Both the position numbers and the translations under genes were made by a program. A DNA stretch of 64,000 nucleotides from Candidatus Latescibacterota bacterium (GTDB lineage: Bacteria; Latescibacterota; UBA2968; UBA8231): contig CBDAOB010000002.1 in NCBI GenBank assembly GCA_965197905.1, forward strand, positions 1 to 64,000, in the 5' to 3' direction. This document shows, in pieces, positions 439-37,995 of the stretch (position 1 is the first letter of the stretch; every line of letters begins with the position of its first letter). The notes under the pieces were generated by a model that was given only the letters and a program-made list of their open reading frames with translations, was not told the DNA's origin and ran no database searches.

Positions 439-2579
439 GTGCGCCACGAGGCGCCAGAGAACCGGGTGGGATGCAAGGACCCACCAACGGGCTGTCGCAG
501 CAGCCCGTTGAAGCTGGAGGCAGCCTGACCCTGGGAGCGCAGGGGAAGGTGGAAGCAGCCTCGACAACGACAGAGTGGAGTGGCACCTCCAGACACTCCA
601 CGTCTGGCAAGCAAGACGGAATGGTGTAACCCGAAGTGAACCAGTGATGGAACCCCCTTTAGCGGCCCGCCAACCCAAACCTGGTGGATAAGGGTTGGTA
701 CGCAACGCACGTGGTCGGATATATGACCGACTGCGACTCTGGGGAGGTGTGATACCCACCGAAGCAGAGGCCTTGGAGAATGCCTGCGGCGTACCCAAGG
801 CGAAGTTGCAGGGGAAAAGCTGGGCACCTCCCCCGTCAAACGGTTCATGGTGAACGTGGGAACCGAGCCGAGTCCGACCGTTATCGGGGCAGCGCGCTGT
901 CCGCTGTGGGGCTTGGCAAGGGACGGAGCCTCTGTAGTAGTCCGCGAGCGGGAAAGCCGCTTACATGGCGAAGGGAGGCAGCAAGTTGCGCAGTGGGGTA
1001 CTGGAAAAACAGGAGGACGCCGGTGAATGCCAGCGCTTCGTGGCCCGAGGCAGAACAAGCCCGTAATCGAGTACTGGAAATCCAGACCGAACTGCACCGT
1101 TGGGCTGTAGAGGATCGAAGCAAGTGCTTCGACGACCTGTTCAACCTGGTGTGTGACCCGGCGTTTTTGAGTGTAGCCTGGCGTCGGGTGCGCAGCAACA
1201 AGGGTGCTCGTTCGGCCGGAGTGGACGGACAAACGGCCTACTCTGTGGAGACGGAACGCGGCGAGGAGGCCTTTCTCGCCGAGGTGCGGGTTGATCTGAA
1301 GACCCGCAGTTTCCGGCCTCTGCCCGTACGCGAGCGGTTGATTCCGAAACCTGGCACAACGAAGAAGCGCCGGCTCGGCATCCCAACCGCTCGGGACCGA
1401 GTGGTCCAAGCCGCACTCAAGCTGGTGCTCGAACCGATCTTCGAAGCGGACTTCAAGCCGTGCTCCTACGGCTTCCGCCCGAATCGGCGGGCTCAGGACG
1501 CCATCGCCGAGATTCATCAATTCTGCTCCCGCTCTTATGAGTGGGTGGTGGAGGGCGATATCCGTGCTTGTTTCGATGAGATTGATCACGCAGCCCTCTT
1601 GGACCGCGTGCGTCGACGTATCGGTGATAAGCATGTTCTGAGGCTTGTAAAAGCGTTCTGCAAGGCCGGTGTCCTCACGGAACAATCGGTGTTGCAAGAA
1701 AGCACTTCGGGCACTCCGCAAGGCGGTATTCTCTCACCGCTGGTGGCAAATATCGCCTTATCCGTCCTCGACGATTATTTCACTGAGGTCTGGAGAAAGG
1801 TGGGCGCTACCTCCAGTGCGCGACAAGCGCATCGGCGAAAGGGGCTACCGACTTGTCGGCTTGTCCGTTACGCTGACGATTTCGTGCTGCTGGTGGCGGG
1901 CACCGAAGCTGCAGCGTATGACCTGCGCGACCAAGCGGGGGTGACTCTCACCCCCATGGGTCTGCACCTGTCGGAGACGAAGACCGCCATCACGCACATC
2001 AGCCGTGGCTTCGATTTCCTGGGTTTTCGCATTCAGAAGCGACGGAAACCGGGCCCGGTTGGCGCACGCATCTATACGTGGCCAAGAAAGGAATCTCTGG
2101 CCCGGTTGAAGAGCACGGTGCGCGCAGTCACGAGAACGGGTCGGCAGAGGCCGTTGAAGAGCCTTCTGCGCCAACTCAATCCGGTGTTGCGGGGGTGGGC
2201 CAACTACTTTCAGTACGGGGTGTCGAAGGCCACTTTCAACTACGTGCGGGGCTTCACTTGGCGCCGCGTAGTGCATTGGCTGCGCCGCAAGCACCCGCGC
2301 TTTAATTGGAGGAAGCTGAAACGCCGCTACCTGCCAGGATGGTGGCCCACCGAGGACGGGATTGCTCTTTACAACGTCGGCGAAGTAGCAGTGACTCGTT
2401 ACCGCTATCGATCGGCGCGGATCCCTTCTCCCTGGCCTGCGACAACCGGATGAGACTCTGCGGTCACACGGCACCTTGTGGAGAGCCGGATGCGTGGTAA
2501 CGCGCACGTCCGGTTCGGAGGGCGGGCCGGAGAAACCCACATCACGCGTGTGGCGCAGGGCGCTCCGGTCCGACCCTAC
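439..2579 (+). mobile_element. Group II intron, RT-encoding, 2141 nt
   Basis: 5' GTGCG at 439; domain V GAGCCGGATGCGTGGTAACGCGCACGTCCGGTTC near 2481-2516; 3' end CCGACCCTAC at 2579; removal restores GAC GGG ATC|TAC GTC AAA (DGI|YVK) in frame. Confidence 0.95.
1023..2453 (+). CDS. ltrA: Group II intron reverse transcriptase/maturase, no evident HNH endonuclease domain
   Basis: AGVDG, LGIPTARDR, SYGFRP, GTPQGGILSP, RYADDF, FDFLGF, domain X LRGWANYF; GTG start at 1023 after AGGAGG. Confidence 0.95.
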   Translation: MNASASWPEAEQARNRVLEIQTELHRWAVEDRSKCFDDLFNLVCDPAFLSVAWRRVRSNKGARSAGVDGQTAYSVETERGEEAFLAEVRVDLKTRSFRPLPVRERLIPKPGTTKKRRLGIPTARDRVVQAALKLVLEPIFEADFKPCSYGFRPNRRAQDAIAEIHQFCSRSYEWVVEGDIRACFDEIDHAALLDRVRRRIGDKHVLRLVKAFCKAGVLTEQSVLQESTSGTPQGGILSPLVANIALSVLDDYFTEVWRKVGATSSARQAHRRKGLPTCRLVRYADDFVLLVAGTEAAAYDLRDQAGVTLTPMGLHLSETKTAITHISRGFDFLGFRIQKRRKPGPVGARIYTWPRKESLARLKSTVRAVTRTGRQRPLKSLLRQLNPVLRGWANYFQYGVSKATFNYVRGFTWRRVVHWLRRKHPRFNWRKLKRRYLPGWWPTEDGIALYNVGEVAVTRYRYRSARIPSPWPATTG

Positions 2580-6659: not shown

Positions 6660-7494
6660 GCATAACGTCTCGCGGGTTTGCGAACCGCGAAGCGGTTGCC
6701 GAAGGCCAAGGCGCGTAGCGACGCAGGTAGGGTCGAGAACTGGCGCGCCAGCCTTAGGGTTCGGTGGGTTCCCCATGGCTTTCGCCATAGCCCTCAGTCC
6801 GACTCCCATCGCTACGTTTCCAGTTCCCGCCGCCTCAAACCGGACGTGCGGATCTCCCGCATCCGGCTTCCCGACGAACGTCACATCCAGGCACACGCCA
6901 CAAGGACTTCACCTGGTAGTCAAGCTGCTTCCGATGCATACTAGTCTTACTGCTGGAGGCAATAGGCTCACGCCACTCTCCAACCCTCTGCACTTCCGCA
7001 GCATGTCCGAAGTCAGGCCCCTTCCCTCCACCGGAGTTACCCGGCTTCCTCGGTACTACGCGCCTGTCCGCCACCTCATCCAGCCCAGTCTGGCCCTCGC
7101 GGGTTACCGGTTGGAGGCACTCGCTGCTTCCACCGGATGAGGCTTCCCGTGTTGCGCCACATCTCCTCTTACACACATGCTGTCGCCACTACCCCGGCGG
7201 AACAGCTGGGTGCGCTTGTCGCTCGACTTCCCCAGCTGCAGCGGCCTTCCCTGGTTTACGGGCAGGTCGGCTTCCGCATTACACTTTTCGAGGCCTGCTC
7301 AGCGTTTACTCACGTTACGGCCTGTGTGCTCGCCAAGTCGCCCAAGGCGACCCTCTACACCGGAGGCTTCAGCGGCTTCGTCGCCTCCACCACTGCTCCG
7401 ATTGCTACCGGCTGGAGCGACCCTTGCCGGGTGGGATTCGCACCCACTGAAGATGTGCGCCTTAGCACGGCGCACCGCAAACGGGTTGTTACCC
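6660..7494 (-). other. attC site interrupted by ORF-less intron copy 1
   Basis: GTTTGCG...CAG|intron|CGCAAAC GGGTT GTTACCC. Confidence 0.9.
6727..7475 (-). mobile_element. ORF-less group II intron, copy 1 (749 nt)
   Basis: Minus strand starts GTGCGCCGTG, domain V GAAGCCGGATGCGGGAGATCCGCACGTCCGGTTT (6870-6837), ends CGACCCTAC. Confidence 0.93.
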
Positions 7495-7919: not shown

Positions 7920-8767
7920 GGGTAACGCCTCGCCGGTTTACGAACCCCGAGCTTACCGAGGGGTTGCCCGAAGGGCCCAGGCGGCACAGCCGTCGCAGGT
8001 AGGGTCGAGAACTGGCGCGCCAGCCTTAGGGTTCGGTGGGTTCCCCATGGCTTTCGCCATAGCCCTCAGTCCGACTCCCATCGCTACGTTTCCAGTTCCC
8101 GCCGCCTCAAACCGGACGTGCGGATCTCCCGCATCCGGCTTCCCGACGAACGTCACATCCAGGCACACGCCACAAGGACTTCACCTGGTAGTCAAGCTGC
8201 TTCCGATGCATACTAAGTCTTACTGCTGGAGGCAATAGGCTCACGCCACTCTCCAACCCTCTGCACTTCCGCAGCATGTCCGAAGTCAGGCCCCTTCCCT
8301 CCACCGGAGTTACCCGGCTTCCTCGGTACTACGCGCCTGTCCGCCACCTCATCCAGCCCAGTCTGGCCCTCGCGGGTTACCGGTTGGAGGCACTCGCTGC
8401 TTCCACCGGATGAGGCTTCCCGTGTTGCGCCACATCTCCTCTTACACACATGCTGTCGCCACTACCCCGGCGGAACAGCTGGGTGCGCTTGTCGCTCGAC
8501 TTCCCCAGCTGCAGCGGCCTTCCCTGGTTTACGGGCAGGTCGGCTTCCGCATTACACTTTTCGAGGCCTGCTCAGCGTTTACTCACGTTACGGCCTGTGT
8601 GCTCGCCAAGTCGCCCAAGGCGACCCTCTACACCGGAGGCTTCAGCGGCTTCGTCGCCTCCACCACTGCTCCGATTGCTACCGGCTGGAGCGACCCTTGC
8701 CGGGTGGGATTCGCACCACTGAAGATGTGCGCCTTAGCACGGCGCACCGAAAACCGCTGTGTTACAA
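7920..8767 (-). other. attC site interrupted by intron copy 2
   Basis: GGGTAAC...GGTTTACG...CAG|intron|CGAAAACC...GTTACAA. Confidence 0.88.
7999..8747 (-). mobile_element. ORF-less group II intron, copy 2 (749 nt; one 1-nt insertion and one 1-nt deletion vs others)
   Basis: Same sequence as copy 1 except TACTAAGTCT (~8214) and GCACCACT (~8716). Confidence 0.93.
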
Positions 8768-11349: not shown

Positions 11350-12189
11350 ACATAACGTTTTGCCGGTTTACGAACTCACGAAGTGGGTTGCCGAAGGCCA
11401 AGGCGGCATCGGCGCCGCAGGTAGGGTCGAGAACTGGCGCGCCAGCCTTAGGGTTCGGTGGGTTCCCCATGGCTTTCGCCATAGCCCTCAGTCCGACTCC
11501 CATCGCTACGTTTCCAGTTCCCGCCGCCTCAAACCGGACGTGCGGATCTCCCGCATCCGGCTTCCCGACGAACGTCACATCCAGGCACACGCCACAAGGA
11601 CTTCACCTGGTAGTCAAGCTGCTTCCGATGCATACTAGTCTTACTGCTGGAGGCAATAGGCTCACGCCACTCTCCAACCCTCTGCACTTCCGCAGCATGT
11701 CCGAAGTCAGGCCCCTTCCCTCCACCGGAGTTACCCGGCTTCCTCGGTACTACGCGCCTGTCCGCCACCTCATCCAGCCCAGTCTGGCCCTCGCGGGTTA
11801 CCGGTTGGAGGCACTCGCTGCTTCCACCGGATGAGGCTTCCCGTGTTGCGCCACATCTCCTCTTACACACATGCTGTCGCCACTACCCCGGCGGAACAGC
11901 TGGGTGCGCTTGTCGCTCGACTTCCCCAGCTGCAGCGGCCTTCCCTGGTTTACGGGCAGGTCGGCTTCCGCATTACACTTTTCGAGGCCTGCTCAGCGTT
12001 TACTCACGTTACGGCCTGTGTGCTCGCCAAGTCGCCCAAGGCGACCCTCTACACCGGAGGCTTCAGCGGCTTCGTCGCCTCCACCACTGCTCCGATTGCT
12101 ACCGGCTGGAGCGACCCTTGCCGGGTGGGATTCGCACCCACTGAAGATGTGCGCCTTAGCACGGCGCACCGTGAACAGTGTTGTTACAA
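11350..12189 (-). other. attC site interrupted by intron copy 3
   Basis: ACATAAC...GTTTACG...CAG|intron|CGTGAAC...GTTACAA. Confidence 0.9.
11421..12169 (-). mobile_element. ORF-less group II intron, copy 3 (749 nt)
   Basis: Same sequence and ends as copy 1. Confidence 0.93.
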
Positions 12190-13285: not shown

Positions 13286-13360
13286 GCCTAACGTTTCACC
13301 GGTTGACGAACCGACAGGCCAAGGTGCGCCAGCACCGCAGCGGCAAACGTGTTGTTAGGC
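13286..13360 (-). other. attC site (family A, first internal hairpin deleted)
   Basis: GCCTAAC...CGGCAAAC...GTTAGGC. Confidence 0.8.
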
Positions 13361-13373
13361 GAAGGAGAACACA

Positions 13374-14057
13374 TCAATATCCACTCAAAGGGCGTTCCCA
13401 TCTGTGATATGTACCATGAACCGTCGCGTTGGTCCGCAGATCAGATGCCAGTCCGTCGCCGCAAGAATCTGCCACAAAAGCACCAGCGTTCAATCTTCCC
13501 TCTTTGGCGGTTCTGTCTTGGGCACATTGGACCACCGCCCGCTGTCCTGAAATGCCTAGTGTCTCGAGGCCTTCGAGCCAAAGACCCCGATAAGTGAATG
13601 TGTCAACTGGAATAATCTCGGCTTCTTGTGGTTGGTCGGTAGCACCATTGGCGAACACAGGTTCCCATAGAAGCAAAGTTCGTCTTAGAGAATCGGTCTC
13701 GAAACCTGCTCTAGAAAAAGCGCGTTGACTTGCTAGGTTGTCAGTTCGAATCGATGCCCCCGCGAGGGAAGCACCGAGTTGTTCACCGTACAACAGTGCT
13801 TCCTTGACTAGGTGGGTTCCGATGCCCATTCCTTGCTCTGCCGGTCTTACGGCGACTAGGTCCAATTCGAATCGCGGATTCGCGCCAGATATTGTGAAAG
13901 CTGAGACAAACCCCGTAATCTCCGCATCGATAGCGACTAGCGTGACGTGCGAACTCGACGACAGATGATCGACGAAAACGTGCCCAAGAAGAGACTCTTG
14001 CCAAACGTCGCCCAGGATGCCGTCGGCGTCGTCAGTAGTTGCAGGTCGAATCAACAA
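13374..14057 (-). CDS. GNAT N-acetyltransferase
   Basis: LIRPAT, VAVRPAEQGMGIG, NLASQRAFSRAGF; TTG start at 14057 after GAAGGGA (the longer ORF-track start lies inside the IS). Confidence 0.8.
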   Translation of the reverse strand: MLIRPATTDDADGILGDVWQESLLGHVFVDHLSSSSHVTLVAIDAEITGFVSAFTISGANPRFELDLVAVRPAEQGMGIGTHLVKEALLYGEQLGASLAGASIRTDNLASQRAFSRAGFETDSLRRTLLLWEPVFANGATDQPQEAEIIPVDTFTYRGLWLEGLETLGISGQRAVVQCAQDRTAKEGRLNAGAFVADSCGDGLASDLRTNATVHGTYHRWERPLSGY

Positions 14058-14094
14058 ACGCTGTCCCTTCACTTTCGGCTTGTATCTTGAAAAT

Positions 14095-14295
14095 CGACTC
14101 CGTTTGATCACATGATCAGTTACATTGGCGAGTATTTGCTGGGGAGGCCGTTTTCGGTTTGAGGCTATGACCTCGCACGTTAGGTAGGCCCCCCACCTCC
14201 GCTGTTAATACCGAGGAAAACCCGAGACGGTCGAGTCTGTATTCTGCAAGCTCGGCAAGCACGGATAGTGGTGGGAGACCAGCAGCCAATATATC
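14095..14295 (+). ncRNA. Putative bridge RNA of the IS110 element
   Basis: Target loop TTTTCGGTT (14151-59)/ACGTTAG (14177-83); donor loop GAAAACCC (14216-23)/TGCAAG (14245-50); ends approximate. Confidence 0.8.
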
Positions 14296-14302
14296 ACGGG
14301 GG

Positions 14303-15313
14303 GTGAACATGCACCAAGAAAATCTAGTCGGCATTGACGTCAGTGCCGCCACGCTGGACGCCGTGCGCAGAGACCGGCGAGGCCAGTTGCTCAATGCAGC
14401 CTTCAGCAACGATACTAGCGGCCACAAGAAGCTCATCAGCTGGGCTACCAGGCGAGGATCAACGGCCCGCATTTGTATAGAAGCTACCGGTGTTTACAGC
14501 TTTCAGCTAGCTATGGCGCTTCATCAACACCCGAAAACAGAGGTCATGGTCGTCAACCCTCGGGCCATCAAGTCCTTCGGCCAAGCGCTCATGCAACGGG
14601 CCAAAATCGATCTAGTGGACGCCGAAGTAATCCTGGCCTTTGTCGAACGCATGGCCTTTGCATCTTGGCACCCGCCACCCGAAGAGGTCCTGCAGTTACA
14701 GTCACTCTCAAGGCGCATTGAGCAGGTGAAGGTGATGCTTAACCAGGAACTCAACCGTCGTCACGCTTATCAATTCCGTGCTGCTGTGGCAAAGTGGGTG
14801 CTCCAAGACATCGAGGTAAACATCCGGCATCTAAGGCGTCGTATAGCTCGTTTGGAAACGCACGGCCTGGAACTGATCGCAGCCAAACCTGAGCTCCAGG
14901 GCGCTTTTCAACGACTGGTCTCCATCAAAGGCGTAGCAGCTATCAGCGCGATGCGGATTTTGGCTGAACTGCTAACCCTCCCACCTGACCTGAAGCCATC
15001 GCAATGGGTCGCTCAGGCCGGTCTCGATCCGCGTGCAAGAGAGTCAGGGGCTTCCGTCCATGGACGTCGGTTTATCTCAAGGACAGGCAACAAACATCTG
15101 CGCCACGCCCTCTACATGCCCGCACTCGTGGCCTTACGACACGAACCACATGTGAAGGCCTTTTATGAAAAACTATTGGCCGCTGGCAAGAGACCCATGC
15201 AGGCAGTGGTGGCCGTGATGCGAAAATTGCTACGATCTATATGGGGTATGCTGAACTACAATCAGGATTTTGAGGACGAAAGATTCTACGAGATTCACAA
15301 GAAAGCAGCTTGA
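14303..15313 (+). CDS. IS110-family DEDD recombinase
   Basis: VGIDVS, IEATG, AKIDLVDA, SIKGVA, AGLDP...ESG, GNKHLRHALYMPA. Confidence 0.93.
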   Translation: MNMHQENLVGIDVSAATLDAVRRDRRGQLLNAAFSNDTSGHKKLISWATRRGSTARICIEATGVYSFQLAMALHQHPKTEVMVVNPRAIKSFGQALMQRAKIDLVDAEVILAFVERMAFASWHPPPEEVLQLQSLSRRIEQVKVMLNQELNRRHAYQFRAAVAKWVLQDIEVNIRHLRRRIARLETHGLELIAAKPELQGAFQRLVSIKGVAAISAMRILAELLTLPPDLKPSQWVAQAGLDPRARESGASVHGRRFISRTGNKHLRHALYMPALVALRHEPHVKAFYEKLLAAGKRPMQAVVAVMRKLLRSIWGMLNYNQDFEDERFYEIHKKAA

Positions 15314-15326
15314 CGGGGAAGAGAAA

Positions 15327-15418
15327 ACCTAACGTTTCTCCGGTTGCCGAACTCGCGCAGCGAGTTGCCGGAGGCCAAGGCGGCGAAGGCCGCCGTAGCG
15401 GCAAACGTGTTGTTACAT
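15327..15418 (-). other. attC site (family A), R' box split by IS110
   Basis: CTAAC...TTGCCG...CGGCAA...GTTACAT. Confidence 0.88.
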
Positions 15419-19839: not shown

Positions 19840-21444
19840 AGTGCCCTGCGGACTAAACAGACGCAGCGCAGGTGCCACGAGGACTCAAATCACGGTTGCG
19901 CGTAACGGACTGTGCGGCGCTGTTAACGGCAGCGGCCGCGAAGCTAACATTGCCTGCCTTCACCTCTGCGGGTGGCTCCGATTTAGAGAAGCACGACACT
20001 GGTAGGACCCTGTAACCGGGAGCCCGTAGAGTCGGAAGGACTTCGGCCGTTCCATCCCCTCTCAAAACAGGAGCACATTCTATGGCACTCATTGTTGGCA
20101 TCGATCTAGGACGCAAAAGCGCCCACGATGTGAGTATCCTACGGCAGGAAAACGCCGAGCAACTGGGACGCACCTTCCGTTTCTATTCGACGCCAACAGA
20201 TCTTGAAATGTTGTTTACACGTATTGAGGCGGTGCGGCAGGACGAAGAAGCTATCGCTTTTGTCATCGATGCCCCCGGAAAAGCCTGGATTCCTATTACC
20301 GCTGTCCTCAAGAGCCCCGGCTTCCCCGTCTATCGGCCTTCTTCCTACCGCGTGCGCCGATTGCGGCAGGCCGGACATCGAAAAAACAAAACCAACCGCA
20401 TCGATGCATTGACCCTGGCGCGCTGCCTGCTCACCTATCCCCAAGATACGCAGGAAGTCTTCCTCCCCCAAAAAATATCAGCCCAGCTCGACCAGTTGGT
20501 GCGTCAGTGCGATCGCATCGTCGATGCGCAAAGGCGCCGCAAACAGCGTATCCAGGATCTCTGCGAGCAGATCAATCCTTATCTCACCACAGCCGCAAGG
20601 GGGTTTCTGCTCACCGAAGCCGGACGCGCCTTCCTGCGCACCTACCTCGATCCCCGAGGCGCCGTCCGATTAGGCAAAAAACGCTGGGCTCTGTTTCTGC
20701 AAAAACGCTATCGACTCCAACTCGATGAAAACATCCTCGATGCCATATACGCTTCTTGCAAGGACGCCACCGAGCTCTACAAGCCCGTACGCAAGGTGGG
20801 ACTGATGCCCTTCAACGAAGAAATCCTCCAGGAGGAAATGCAGTGGGAAATAGACCAGCTAGAACGTGAGGAAGCGCGCATCCTACTCCTGGAACGCCAG
20901 ATCAAACAATGCAATCAAACGTTAGATCCACAGGAGTCTTTTCTCTCCCTACCTGGCGTCCAGCACACCATCGCGGCAGGACTGCGCACATGCATTGGCG
21001 ACATCGATCGCTTTAATAGCCTCACCAAACATCGAGGCTTTGGAGGCTTATACCCATCCGTGAGTAAAACCGGCAACGACGACTCGGCACCCATGCCGAT
21101 CTCAAAAATGAGCTGCAATCGCTACAAGCGATACCTCTACCTAGCCGCTGAAAACGCCTACAAATAGGACGTTGACTGTGCCGCCTTCTACCACAAGCGA
21201 AGAAGCCGAGGTCATACACACAAACAGGCCGTCTGTGCGGTCGCCAACTCAAAACTCTTACCGCGAATACACCAACTCCTAAAAAAGCTCAAACAAGCAG
21301 AAAACTCGGGCACCCATAGACCCTACTACGTATTCAGAGATCTACAAGGAAATCCAATCAGCAAAACAGAAGCAAAGGCGATCATCACCGCTAAATGGGG
21401 CCACCTCAAATACGGGAAAAAAGGACTTGCAACGGCTTAGAGAA
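19840..21444 (+). mobile_element. IS110-family element abutting an attC R'' core; left end uncertain (19840 or ~19944)
   Basis: Right junction CTTAGAGAA|TGTTAAATGAC; CTTAGAGAA also at 19831-39. Confidence 0.75.
20082..21440 (+). pseudogene. IS110 recombinase with premature TAG at 21165-21167
   Basis: VGIDLG, KTNRIDA, SLPGV, LYLAA; frame continues ...FYHKRRSRGHTHKQAVCAVAN to 21440. Confidence 0.85.
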
Positions 21445-26313: not shown

Positions 26314-26378
26314 TTGCTCTCGCCGATTGCCGAACTCGCGAAGCGGTTGCCGCAGGCCAAGACTTCCTATAACCGATG

Positions 26379-27608
26379 TCAAGCGAAAACGGGTTCGGTT
26401 GGTTCTTGCCGTGCGATGTTCAGCAGGTGATAGGTTTCATCGTACGGGACCGCGTCGCGCCACATGAAGTAAATAATCTTAAGCCATTTCGATCCCAACG
26501 CCCTTAAGGCCCGTTGGTGACTCCGTCCTAGGTTTCGTTGTCGTTCATAGTAGGCTCTTGCCCATTCGCTGCTTCTCAAGGAAATCATGGCTATCCAGTT
26601 TATGGCATAGCGCATCACCTTGTTGCAGGCATAGCGAAACTGGACCCGTTCATATTTGCCGCTTTTCTGCGTCACCGGCGTGGTGCCCGCCTGCGCTTGC
26701 AGATGGCGGAACGAGGTCCAACGTTCAGGCGCATCGCCTAATTCAGCCAAAAGAGTCGGAAGGATCGTTCCCGACTTCCCGCCGGGCAAACTCATGGCCC
26801 ATTGGGAAGATGGCAGATCTGCAAATGCTTGTTCGATTTCCCGTTTATACGTTTTGATGGCGGCAGCCTGAGTCTGTAATTGTGCCACCAACACCAGCAT
26901 CATTCTCGACCGAGCCCGCACAACGTGATGAGGAATGGCAATCTGCGGGCTATGGAGAAGGTCCCATAGCTGGGCCGTTCGTGCCGCATTCAAGCGGTGG
27001 CTCCGAGCAAAGTCCTGCCACTGTTGTTTGGTCAGCCGTTTCAGCTCACCAGGCGTAGGATACGCCTGCAGGAAATCAAGGGCCGTCCCACTGGCCATTT
27101 CCTCATAGGCCTCGAGGGAGCGGGGATAATATTCTTTCAACGTAGCCTTTAGTTGATTGATCCATCGCGTCTGCTGACGTACCAACTTTTGATAGTCTCG
27201 TGTCAGCATTTTCAGCTCGGCAGCTGCCGACGAGTTGGGCGTTAGCGGATGAAGATGGTTATGGTCTGTGCGGAGAAATTCCGCCAATACACACGCATCA
27301 AACGGATCGCTCTTAGACCGACTCACCCGGAAGCGATCTCGAGCCCGATCCAAGGCCTTGGGATTGATCGGATAAACCAAAACATCGTGATCTAACAAGA
27401 AGTCGATCATCCGTCCCTCGGGTTTCTCAATGGCAGCCCACAACAAAATCCCCTCAGCTCGACACTCGTATAACCACCGGCCGAATTCACTTAGGCTTTC
27501 CGACGTGTTACTTATCACCCGCTGAGTAATCCGCTTGCCGTTGTCCTCAACGACACAAACATCATGCGTCTGGTCGGACCAATCTACTCCCAAAATGTAG
27601 TGCTGCAT
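26379..27608 (-). CDS. IS110-family DEDD recombinase
   Basis: LGVDWS, AIEKP, SKSDPFDA, SLPG, AGTTPVTQKSGK. Confidence 0.93.
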   Translation of the reverse strand: MQHYILGVDWSDQTHDVCVVEDNGKRITQRVISNTSESLSEFGRWLYECRAEGILLWAAIEKPEGRMIDFLLDHDVLVYPINPKALDRARDRFRVSRSKSDPFDACVLAEFLRTDHNHLHPLTPNSSAAAELKMLTRDYQKLVRQQTRWINQLKATLKEYYPRSLEAYEEMASGTALDFLQAYPTPGELKRLTKQQWQDFARSHRLNAARTAQLWDLLHSPQIAIPHHVVRARSRMMLVLVAQLQTQAAAIKTYKREIEQAFADLPSSQWAMSLPGGKSGTILPTLLAELGDAPERWTSFRHLQAQAGTTPVTQKSGKYERVQFRYACNKVMRYAINWIAMISLRSSEWARAYYERQRNLGRSHQRALRALGSKWLKIIYFMWRDAVPYDETYHLLNIARQEPTEPVFA

Positions 27609-27624
27609 CCAAATCTCCTTCTTG

Positions 27625-27845
27625 CTTTCATCAAGAAGCTCGACCGGAAAGGTTGGCCTTATATCGGTCCTCGGAGGGACGACTTCCTATTGAACCTTTC
27701 AACTCCGATCTCAATGCCGGGCGGGACAGTCTTGGCCAGATCCTCAGCGGGATGAGGCGCGAATGGTCCTCTACCCAGAATGCTCCTCAAATAGATTCAG
27801 TGTCGATTCAACGATACTGAATCGCAAGAAACATTTCCCCTTGCG
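27625..27845 (-). ncRNA. Putative bridge RNA
   Basis: Minus strand: target guides CGCGCCT (27761-55)/GGCCAAG (27737-31); donor guides ATAGGAAGTC (27690-81)/GATATAAG (27665-58); ends approximate. Confidence 0.85.
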
Positions 27846-27874
27846 GGTGATATAAGGCGCGGCTAGCGCCGCAG

Positions 27875-28623
27875 GTAGGGTCGAGAACTGGCGCGCCAGC
27901 CTTAGGGTTCGGTGGGTTCCCCATGGCTTTCGCCATAGCCCTCAGTCCGACTCCCATCGCTACGTTTCCAGTTCCCGCCGCCTCAAACCGGACGTGCGGA
28001 TCTCCCGCATCCGGCTTCCCGACGAACGTCACATCCAGGCACACGCCACAAGGACTTCACCTGGTAGTCAAGCTGCTTCCGATGCATACTAGTCTTACTG
28101 CTGGAGGCAATAGGCTCACGCCACTCTCCAACCCTCTGCACTTCCGCAGCATGTCCGAAGTCAGGCCCCTTCCCTCCACCGGAGTTACCCGGCTTCCTCG
28201 GTACTACGCGCCTGTCCGCCACCTCATCCAGCCCAGTCTGGCCCTCGCGGGTTACCGGTTGGAGGCACTCGCTGCTTCCACCGGATGAGGCTTCCCGTGT
28301 TGCGCCACATCTCCTCTTACACACATGCTGTCGCCACTACCCCGGCGGAACAGCTGGGTGCGCTTGTCGCTCGACTTCCCCAGCTGCAGCGGCCTTCCCT
28401 GGTTTACGGGCAGGTCGGCTTCCGCATTACACTTTTCGAGGCCTGCTCAGCGTTTACTCACGTTACGGCCTGTGTGCTCGCCAAGTCGCCCAAGGCGACC
28501 CTCTACACCGGAGGCTTCAGCGGCTTCGTCGCCTCCACCACTGCTCCGATTGCTACCGGCTGGAGCGACCCTTGCCGGGTGGGATTCGCACCCACTGAAG
28601 ATGTGCGCCTTAGCACGGCGCAC
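27875..28623 (-). mobile_element. ORF-less group II intron, copy 4 (749 nt)
   Basis: Same sequence and ends as copy 1. Confidence 0.93.
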
Positions 28624-28653
28624 CGAAAACCGGGTGTTATGAGAAGTGTCTAC

Positions 28654-33822: not shown

Positions 33823-34718
33823 CTTTAACGTTTTTCGGCTTTACGACGTGGGCCTGATCCCGAATAGGGATTGGCGCGGCGGTTGCCAAAGGCAATCGCT
33901 GTGACAAAAGGCCCGTGTGCCCGTAGGGCCGAGGGGCGAATGCCCCGATGGTAGGGTCGAGAACTGGCGCGCCAGCCTTAGGGTTCGGTGGGTTCCCCAT
34001 GGCTTTCGCCATAGCCCTCAGTCCGACTCCCATCGCTACGTTTCCAGTTCCCGCCGCCTCAAACCGGACGTGCGGATCTCCCGCATCCGGCTTCCCGACG
34101 AACGTCACATCCAGGCACACGCCACAAGGACTTCACCTGGTAGTCAAGCTGCTTCCGATGCATACTAGTCTTACTGCTGGAGGCAATAGGCTCACGCCAC
34201 TCTCCAACCCTCTGCACTTCCGCAGCATGTCCGAAGTCAGGCCCCTTCCCTCCACCGGAGTTACCCGGCTTCCTCGGTACTACGCGCCTGTCCGCCACCT
34301 CATCCAGCCCAGTCTGGCCCTCGCGGGTTACCGGTTGGAGGCACTCGCTGCTTCCACCGGATGAGGCTTCCCGTGTTGCGCCACATCTCCTCTTACACAC
34401 ATGCTGTCGCCACTACCCCGGCGGAACAGCTGGGTGCGCTTGTCGCTCGACTTCCCCAGCTGCAGCGGCCTTCCCTGGTTTACGGGCAGGTCGGCTTCCG
34501 CATTACACTTTTCGAGGCCTGCTCAGCGTTTACTCACGTTACGGCCTGTGTGCTCGCCAAGTCGCCCAAGGCGACCCTCTACACCGGAGGCTTCAGCGGC
34601 TTCGTCGCCTCCACCACTGCTCCGATTGCTACCGGCTGGAGCGACCCTTGCCGGGTGGGATTCGCACCCACTGAAGATGTGCGCCTTAGCACGGCGCACC
34701 GTAAAACCGATGTTATAT
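33823..34718 (-). other. Long (147 bp net) divergent attC interrupted by intron copy 5
   Basis: CTTTAAC...CGGCTTTTACG...four hairpins...GATG|intron|CGTAAAACCG AT GTTATAT. Confidence 0.85.
33951..34699 (-). mobile_element. ORF-less group II intron, copy 5 (749 nt)
   Basis: Same sequence and ends as copy 1. Confidence 0.93.
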
Positions 34719-37153: not shown

Positions 37154-37995
37154 TCATCTCGTCTCATCGCGATTAGGTAAATCTCCGTCTTTAAGTTTGA
37201 TGTTATCCAGTGGCGACCGAATGCGCCGAATATCTTTCTGCATCACATGGGTATAGACCATCGTCGTCTCCGGTCGCTGTCCAGATCCTCCGCTTTCAGC
37301 CGGACGACTTCGCTGACTCGTAGGCCGGCCGAGTAAGCCACCATGAGCAGGGCTCGGTGCTTGGGGTTTCTCAGAGCGTTGAATATCCGAATCACTTCAT
37401 CACGGCTCAGGACGATGGGCAACTTGCTCTCGCGACGTGGTCGGGGTATCTCCTCCACGATGGCGGGTCTGCGCAACACCCGAAGGAAGTAGAATTTGAT
37501 CGCGCTTACGACTTGATTGATGTAGGCTCGGGAGACCTGCCGCTCATCGATCAGGTAAAGGAGGTATTGGCGAATCTCCGCCTCTTCCACGTGGCGCGGA
37601 TCCTGTTGCAGAAATCGTTGGAAGCGAAGCAGATGATTGCGATAGGACTTCTGCGTGGGCGGACTATAACCTCTGAGTCTGAGTTCCTGGTCTATCGGCT
37701 TGAGGAAGGCCTCTTCTGTGGGCGAAAGTACGGTGCGACGACTCTTCCGAGCTGCCGCGCGGGAATGTGGGTTTCGGATTTGACGTTCCTTGAATAGCTG
37801 CTGCAGACGCTCGATGGTCTCCTCCGTATGCGGTACACTCCAGCACTTCTCCTGAGGATGCCATCGGTAACCTGGTACCTTCTTGATCTTGCTGACCTTG
37901 TCGGGGTGATACGAGAAAGATACTCTGAGCCGTCCGGATGGAGCTTGATCTATTGATGCGCTACGGAATCCACCAGATGTCGAATGGCATGAATC
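37154..37995 (-). pseudogene. intI: Integron integrase pseudogene (internal deletion of most of the catalytic domain, no in-frame start)
   Basis: LRGYSPPTQKSY, AIKFYF, KLPIVLSRDEV, YSAGLRVSE, DLDSDR joined out of frame to ETTMVYTHV...IRSPLD. Confidence 0.88.

Follow-up and report, generated by a model that had tools for sequence, protein, structure and literature searches.

Can an RNA-guided insertion sequence be aimed at the recombination site of an integron, and can it then travel with the cassette that it has entered? The question is raised by the window, the whole stretch of 64,000 nucleotides analyzed here, which contains a long minus-strand cassette array, with imperfect palindromes of 70 to 95 nt following same-strand open reading frames (ORFs), and within that array an IS110-family element in the opposite orientation. 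We conclude that this element is very probably a bridge-RNA insertion sequence of the IS621 type that targets the R' core of attC sites in integrons, and that it belongs to a broad group sharing this aim.

Structure of the element

We place the boundaries of the element at 14081..15330 on the plus strand because these ends match those of its relatives, nearly all parsed elements of which start CT|TGTAYN and end AGAGTAT|CT. So defined, the IS621-type element measures 1,250 bp with one CT core counted and lies antisense to the cassette array. The CT core is present at both junctions (14079-14080 and 15329-15330), and the longest subterminal inverted match between the first 50 nt of each end is 4 nt. 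Contigs of run X7, which hold a related element, begin to match at 14080/14081 and continue beyond the element, and both junctions are bridged by contigs of runs X1 and X3, which come from two studies and of which X1 may be the source.

The element encodes an IS110 recombinase of 334 amino acids (14309..15313, plus strand; Pfam PF01548 and PF02371). Its DEDD RuvC domain and its Tnp domain with the catalytic serine are both present with intact residues (D10, E58, D101, D104, and S246), and the protein aligns end to end with those of IS621 (8wt6, E 4e-38) and ISCro4 (E 5e-36). The non-coding left end is 228 nt long and the right end 15 nt, the long-left, short-right arrangement of the IS621 type. 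The short right region (15310..15330, plus strand) holds a -35 hexamer, TTGACG (15310-15315), that overlaps the stop codon, the left donor AGAAAAC (15322-15328), and the core CT, while at the other end the right donor TGTAT begins at 14081 and the -10 half TATCTT occupies 14083..14088 (plus strand). As had been predicted, TTGACG-17-TATCTT arises across the joined ends as a putative circle-junction promoter, and a TTG-type -35 at 17 or 18 nt across the junction recurs in 60/65 guide types among the matches listed. A scan for promoters yielded one site at chance level and none directed outward, and no circle junction was seen in 168 genomes or in the contigs of four runs, which can show presence and not absence.

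The host genome carries one full copy and three decayed fragments; a contig joint at 14834-15082 is consistent with the deleted fragment at C3:308658. Decayed bridge-RNA remnants were noted at C3:320964-321070 and C5:1010760-1010924, the former with the same right target guide, ACGTTAG, and another left guide. Among 72,556 plasmids there was no close relative, the best match reaching 44% identity and the nearest matches on enterobacterial plasmids about 36%.

The occupied attC site and its cassette

The insertion joins two halves of a target. On the left, CTTTCGG (14072-14078) with the core CT (together 14072..14080, plus strand) is the host cassette's head in reverse complement; on the right, AACGT (15331-15335, plus strand) belongs to the attC of the upstream cassette (15327..15418, minus strand; R'' at 15412-15418), a member of the repeat family of the window. 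The R' box of this occupied attC reads GTTAGGT, its final bases coming from the IS. With the attC box names assigned as we assume them and the IntI crossover G|TT presumably falling between 15333 and 15332, the right core T at 15330 means that the element begins 2 nt inside the cassette, which encodes a GNAT acetyltransferase.

This host cassette (13292..15332, minus strand) is 791 bp without the IS and 2,041 bp with it, and it has an attC of the window repeat family (13286..13360, minus strand). The GNAT gene (13374..14072, minus strand; Pfam PF00583; GTG start at 14072 or TTG start at 14057) is uninterrupted, its start lying 6 nt from the junction. The insertion point can thus be read from sequence as 2 nt to the cassette side of the crossover, antisense, and ahead of the start codon of the cassette gene.

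The array around it is extensive. An attC profile built from 20 window sites gave 57 matches in the host genome, 26 of them within the first 50 kb of the contig, and the genome has an integron integrase above the curated cut-off at C3:204281 as well as an IntI fragment at window positions 37267-37707. This fragment, which stands at the head of the array, and likewise the IntI-like genes beside the copies on contig C1 of a second genome, G041, runs in the same direction as the cassettes rather than away from them. The attC family of the window (e.g., 15327-15418) has a branched center of two or three short hairpins.

The empty target given in the original prediction, TTTCGG-CT-AACGT, remains a reconstruction: neither an empty allele among 168 genomes nor an IS-skipping joint in the contigs of 4 of 11 runs was found (contigs show presence only), and GNAT homologues in 5/167 other genomes are merely 37 to 44% identical. 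The reconstruction is indirectly supported by a head-to-tail comparison, in which the empty head matches the cassette's own tail at 10/12 positions and at 12/15 over a longer stretch; 14/14 other cassette pairs give 9 to 11 of 12.

A candidate bridge RNA and its guides

All parts of the candidate bridge RNA lie on the plus strand of the long left end. Sequence and folding point to a candidate 5' stem-loop, TGATCA-CA-TGATCA (14105..14118). The target-binding loop (14141..14195), supported by covariation of its stems and of guides with flanks, comprises a left target guide (LTG), TTTTCGGTT (14151-14159), an inner stem GAGG/CCTC (14161-14174), a right target guide (RTG), ACGTTAG (14177-14183), and the handshake bases GT (14184-14185). 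The donor-binding loop (14210..14256), which covaries with the donor, comprises a left donor guide (LDG), GGAAAACCC (14215-14223), an inner stem AGAC/GTCT, a right donor guide (RDG), TGCAAG (14245-14250), and the handshake bases CT (14251-14252). Every motif of the targets, donors, guides, and stems named in the original prediction was found in its place.

With the segments arranged as in IS621 (PMC11208160), the four guides agree with target and donor, taken in order, at 28/31 positions, a value reached by 0/3,000 dinucleotide shuffles of the left end (mean, 21.7 ± 0.9; maximum, 26). The proposed check by folding and covariation gave a divided answer. The minimum free energy fold of the left end alone is no better than those of shuffled sequences (z = -0.46), and there is no Rfam match over the left end. 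In an alignment of 45 relatives, the four stems around the loops show 90% pairing and all four covary, with 13/20 pairs changed on both sides compared to 5.8 when shuffled, a test that kinship can inflate.

Two details of the predicted loops had to be revised. The donor guides match as proposed, but relatives favor ACCG/CGGY over CCGAG/CTCGG as the stem closing the donor loop, which places GG in the guide and makes CT the handshake bases. The left target guide likewise matches the target, but over its full 9 nt it forms two U:G wobbles rather than one; one of these falls at the first core base, where IS621 strongly prefers a Watson-Crick pair, and this counts against our explanation.

The handshake bases themselves speak for it. 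Donor position 7 is the partner of the target-loop handshake base in 64/64 types, 63 with the same A:T pair and one with a compensatory change, and the element at 14081-15330 is alone in having changed both partners. The donor-loop handshake base pairs in 53/64 types compared to 37.7 ± 2.4 in shuffles. Relatives combine the left donor AGAGTAT with LDG GGAGTATCN and handshake AT; the element studied here uniquely combines AGAAAAC with GGAAAACCC and GT. The handshake rule (PMC11208158) requires just such a joint change of the left donor, its guide, and the handshake base.

By analogy with IS621, the element would circularize at its CT core, and the joined ends would form a sigma-70 promoter driving transcription of the left end into a bridge RNA with two loops. 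Its target loop would pair with the cassette head, CT, and AACGT, and the donor loop with AGAAAAC-CT-TGTA, while the DEDD/Ser recombinase would exchange strands at the core.

An aim at the attC crossover box, as first proposed, is borne out in that the guide reads the R' core, with insertion 2 nt from the crossover, and has to be widened in that it reads the cassette head too. The right half of the guide reads the conserved attC side: its target AACGT occurs at 29/42 readable R' boxes of the host genome, and the C at RTG position 4 separates the two boxes, with AACG in 20/21 R' and AACA in 21/21 R'' boxes of the window sites. The left half covers the opening bases of the next cassette and fits the cassette-head consensus of the genome at positions 2 to 5 and not at 6 to 8. 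R' cores among the 42 attC sites are CT at only 7, TT at 12, and AT, the commonest, at 17; a TT core could pair with both guides. Because the left half reads the cassette head and so few sites have a CT core, the guide is aimed at a subset of cassettes and not purely at the attC box, and only a portion of an array is open to any one element. Scored against the guide, the occupied site reaches 15/16; the runner-up within 6.7 Mb, at 14.5, is the empty attC R' at C3:350555.

Relatives and their targets

A scan of contigs with the single protein found no relatives, and these were obtained with an alignment of 56 of 120 listed homologues. The loci comprise the best 80 of 554 and the best 80 of 524 confirmed matches, a sample biased toward close relatives. 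For the test of guides against flanks, 119/190 loci were used, with one locus per guide type, giving 67 types. Among these listed matches, the LTG agrees with the left flank at 4.46 of 7 positions exactly, compared to 2.45 ± 0.13 when shuffled, and the RTG with the right flank at 4.55 of 5, compared to 2.31 ± 0.12. Both signals persist within the group with a GTTAG right guide alone. It had been asked whether other copies might have different ends or flanks unrelated to their guides; the ends are shared by nearly all parsed elements and the flanks track the guides across the 67 types, and the IS621 architecture thus holds and extends to many relatives.

A rival reading accepts the guides as real and takes attC as incidental: a CT-core IS110 element with a GTTAG guide would hit any CTAAC, whether in stop codons or by chance, and cassette arrays offer many. 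The host genome lends this some credit, as 17/19 of its best-scoring unoccupied sites are not flagged as attC by the profile. The distribution of guides points the other way. GTTAG right guides make up 37/67 guide types among the matches listed, and the left guides that go with them are varied and for the most part spell cassette heads of the GTTAGGC type; the C specific for R' over R'' is present in 32/44 GTTAG types among the matches listed. An AAC flank follows in 34/37 GTTAG types and in 0/30 other types among these matches.

To recognize attC in flanks, we used a rule made for this analysis in place of a curated model, counting as a pass a score above the 97th percentile of 348 shuffles; the rule had been revised after a stricter, one-bulge version missed the window's own site, which now scores 7.4, just over threshold, with the bulge on the 3' arm of the plus strand. 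Left out were flanks shorter than 60 nt (5 AAC and 5 other), duplicates, and loci whose right end was not parsed. Among the matches listed, 24/58 AAC flanks pass, compared to 3/95 other flanks, a control set that includes many copies of few elements; the stricter rule gives 13/57 against 0/94. Counts of attC on the opposite strand are no control, because attC sites are near-palindromic. The passing sites are found in the host's phylum, in beta-, gamma-, and deltaproteobacteria, in a planctomycete, and in a verrucomicrobium. Of these 24 sites, 17 have their extra base on the 3' arm, as expected for R' insertion, 3 have it on the 5' arm, and 4 are tied. Further attC-like sites occur at 20/45 AAC loci and 7/45 others, and an antisense ORF of at least 60 amino acids starts within 40 nt at 18/32 AAC loci and 18/69 others.

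In favor of an incidental attC, 34/58 AAC flanks fail the rule, some at contig ends or decayed, and the AAC flanks of L034, L037, L044, L121, and L181 do not look like attC. GTTAG guides are also scattered over a quick tree of 102 proteins, where the R' label requires 20 changes, at least 13 of them forced, compared to 33.9 when shuffled. Judging by the labels on genomes of the same class in this tree, the host is probably a member of Candidatus Latescibacterota. Retargeting thus appears frequent, and as to its direction, one origin with losses and repeated gains both fit the quick tree. Weighing the higher pass rate of AAC flanks, the additional attC-like sites around them, the R'-reading C, and the abundance of GTTAG guides, we consider an incidental role of attC unlikely.

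Individual genomes illustrate the preferred aim at attC. In G041, 3/3 copies lie at attC R' boxes of different cassettes, each 3 to 10 kb from an IntI-like gene (the IntI-like matches beside the copies in G041 and G101 fall below the curated cut-off), and G170 has three copies at CT|AACG within one 20-kb cassette array. Of four further copies found later, all four lie at CT|AACG and three pass the attC rule.

Other loci add observations of their own. The left guide of G041 ends in AT, and 2/3 copies (L014, L019) have an AT left and a CT right junction, a pattern that corresponds to a CT donor inserted into an AT-core target; L067 and L198 were noted in the same connection. Some 400 bp separate a GTTAG-guide copy, L207 (G168 C6), from a broken IntI-like gene, and the flank of this copy may be attI or a decayed attC. 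Multicopy relatives at L010, L011, L015, and L018, with further copies in G085 and G092, are aimed at pyrimidine-rich heptamer repeats such as CCCCTCT and CCCGTCT, with tandem insertions at L029 and L127.

A second alternative supposes that the element recognizes the folded attC hairpin and that the RNA match is secondary. IntI and group IIC-attC introns recognize the folded, single-stranded attC hairpin, and the target here lies at the base of a hairpin-forming site; IS621 is, moreover, able to act on single strands (10.64898/2026.08.31.748434). Yet close relatives with other guides enter matching sites that are not attC, and the left guide varies along with the cassette head. Recognition of the hairpin in place of RNA guidance is therefore highly improbable, although the hairpin may have a helping role.

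Consequences for cassette mobility

Among the matches listed, the GTTRRRY box is found at 46/46 sites after insertion compared to 38/46 before. The donor end that rebuilds it is common to relatives that do not target attC and to IS621 (ACAGTAT); repair of R' may therefore be a preadaptation rather than the result of selection, or, if attC is incidental, mere luck. The upstream attC retains its lowest-energy fold, with a low predicted pairing of the R box (outer pair) that drops from 0.16 to 0.002.

Judged by its position, the IS would possibly leave with the cassette upon IntI excision. The GTTAG core is left intact, as first proposed; the further proposal of travel inside the cassette follows from position, and among the loci compared there were no two that shared a left flank but differed in the right one, as expected of a moved IS plus cassette. 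We tentatively entertain a wider picture, in which a widespread and possibly ancestrally attC-adapted bridge-RNA group rides as cassette passengers: these elements would enter 2 nt inside a cassette, rebuild GTTRRRY, spare the gene, be spread by IntI, and have their left guides retuned to the cassette heads of the host, including AT-core sites used with a CT donor. If true, two recombinases, one guided by RNA and the other that of the integron, would be linked.

The opposing view concerns this hitchhiking step only and sees a dead end, the element no longer moving and no longer traveling with its cassette, since a circle carrying the IS would reintegrate poorly. Folding lends it weight: in the attC of the IS-carrying circle, predicted outer pairing of the R box falls from 0.96 to 0.32 and the energy from -18.8 to -14.4 kcal/mol, a site weaker by a predicted 4.4 kcal/mol with its extended outer pairing lost. 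The single full copy beside three decayed fragments in the host genome and the lack of a moved pair among the loci compared also agree with it. On the other hand, the ORF, catalytic residues, guides, and promoter halves are all intact, the 7-bp R box of the circle still pairs with six Watson-Crick pairs and one G:T, and the copies with identical proteins that G041 and G170 each contain suggest that relatives have moved recently. A dead end is accordingly a serious possibility, though one toward which we do not lean.

Other mobile elements in the array

Five near-identical group II intron copies of about 730 nt (Rfam RF02003) lie on the minus strand of the window at approximately 6718-7477, 7990-8750, 11412-12172, 27866-28625, and 33942-34701; they are too short for an intron-encoded reverse transcriptase. 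All five are inside attC sites, with 5' GTGCG on the cassette strand. Group IIC-attC introns are usually on the strand opposite the cassettes (PMC3001079), with one exception described (PMC9229058). Separate from these copies is a group II intron domain V/VI match at 2481-2579 (plus strand, RF00029).

The window also holds two further IS110-like elements. One, at 20082-21167 (361 amino acids, PF01548 and PF02371), seems cut by an early TAG at 21165 and lies between attC-like halves near 19904 and 21447. The other, at 26362-27857, has a 409-amino-acid ORF (26379-27608, minus strand) and splits an attC centrally at GCCAAG|GCGCGG, the same attC holding an intron copy.

Comparison with known systems

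The closest characterized systems are the bridge recombinases of IS621 and ISCro4 (Durrant 2024, PMC11208160; Hiraizumi 2024, PMC11208158). With IS621 the element shares a long left end with a predicted two-loop RNA, a CT core, the motif of a putative junction promoter, handshake bases, and a DEDD-plus-serine recombinase, and on this reading it has every IS621-type feature that can be assessed in sequence. The donors are near-identical between IS621 (ACAGTAT-CT-TGTAT) and the relatives (AGAGTAT-CT-TGTAT). The element differs from IS621 in its distant protein (E 4e-38), in its left donor, AGAAAAC, and in its target, the attC R' core rather than REP. Supplementary Data 1 of Durrant (PMC11208160) contains two unlabeled elements with GTTAG guides and CTAACG targets; in the accessible text of that source attC is named only in a reference, and the word "integron" is absent from the searchable text of the supplements. 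A natural target class can thus be proposed for a large share of the sampled IS621-like guides (37/67 types among the matches listed).

A second comparison is with the IS1111-attC group, whose members are likewise RNA-guided, belong to the IS110 superfamily, and enter attC antisense to the cassettes. Membership in this group was considered and rejected because guide position, repeats, and insertion end all differ: in the IS1111-attC group the guide RNA lies downstream of the gene and there are subterminal repeats, whereas here the guides lie upstream and no repeat exceeds 4 nt, and insertion is at R', the 3' side. The IS1111-attC elements are reportedly to be credited to Tetu and Holmes in 2008 and Post and Hall in 2009. 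ISKpn4, ISPst6, ISPa21, and ISPa25 represent the group, in which the guide is termed seekRNA (Siddiquee 2024, PMC11187229). These elements insert near the 5' end of attC (PMC3001079), in contrast to the 3' R' core entered here, where attC is left whole.

Group IIC-attC introns (PMC3001079) are, like this element, specialized on attC and oriented opposite to the cassettes, but they use ribozyme-based retrohoming at another position in attC rather than DNA recombination. No description of an R'-aimed IS110-group element with a left-end guide was found in the literature examined, including the accessible parts of PMC12444791 and PMC11089894; the 2008 and 2009 studies, known through citations, could mention one. 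The element thus combines a known chemistry with a known class of target, and it differs from earlier cases in its lineage and in the position that it enters in attC. To the two kinds of attC parasite already described, IS1111-attC elements and IIC-attC introns, it would add a third, and of these it alone is so placed as to keep attC whole and to join the cassette. The effect of attC-targeting IS elements on cassette mobility has been raised as an open point (PMC11616780), and this element makes the question testable. Together with its relatives it provides a natural collection of variant guides and handshake bases in which target and donor cores can differ, and such a set should be useful in working out the rules of bridge recombinases.
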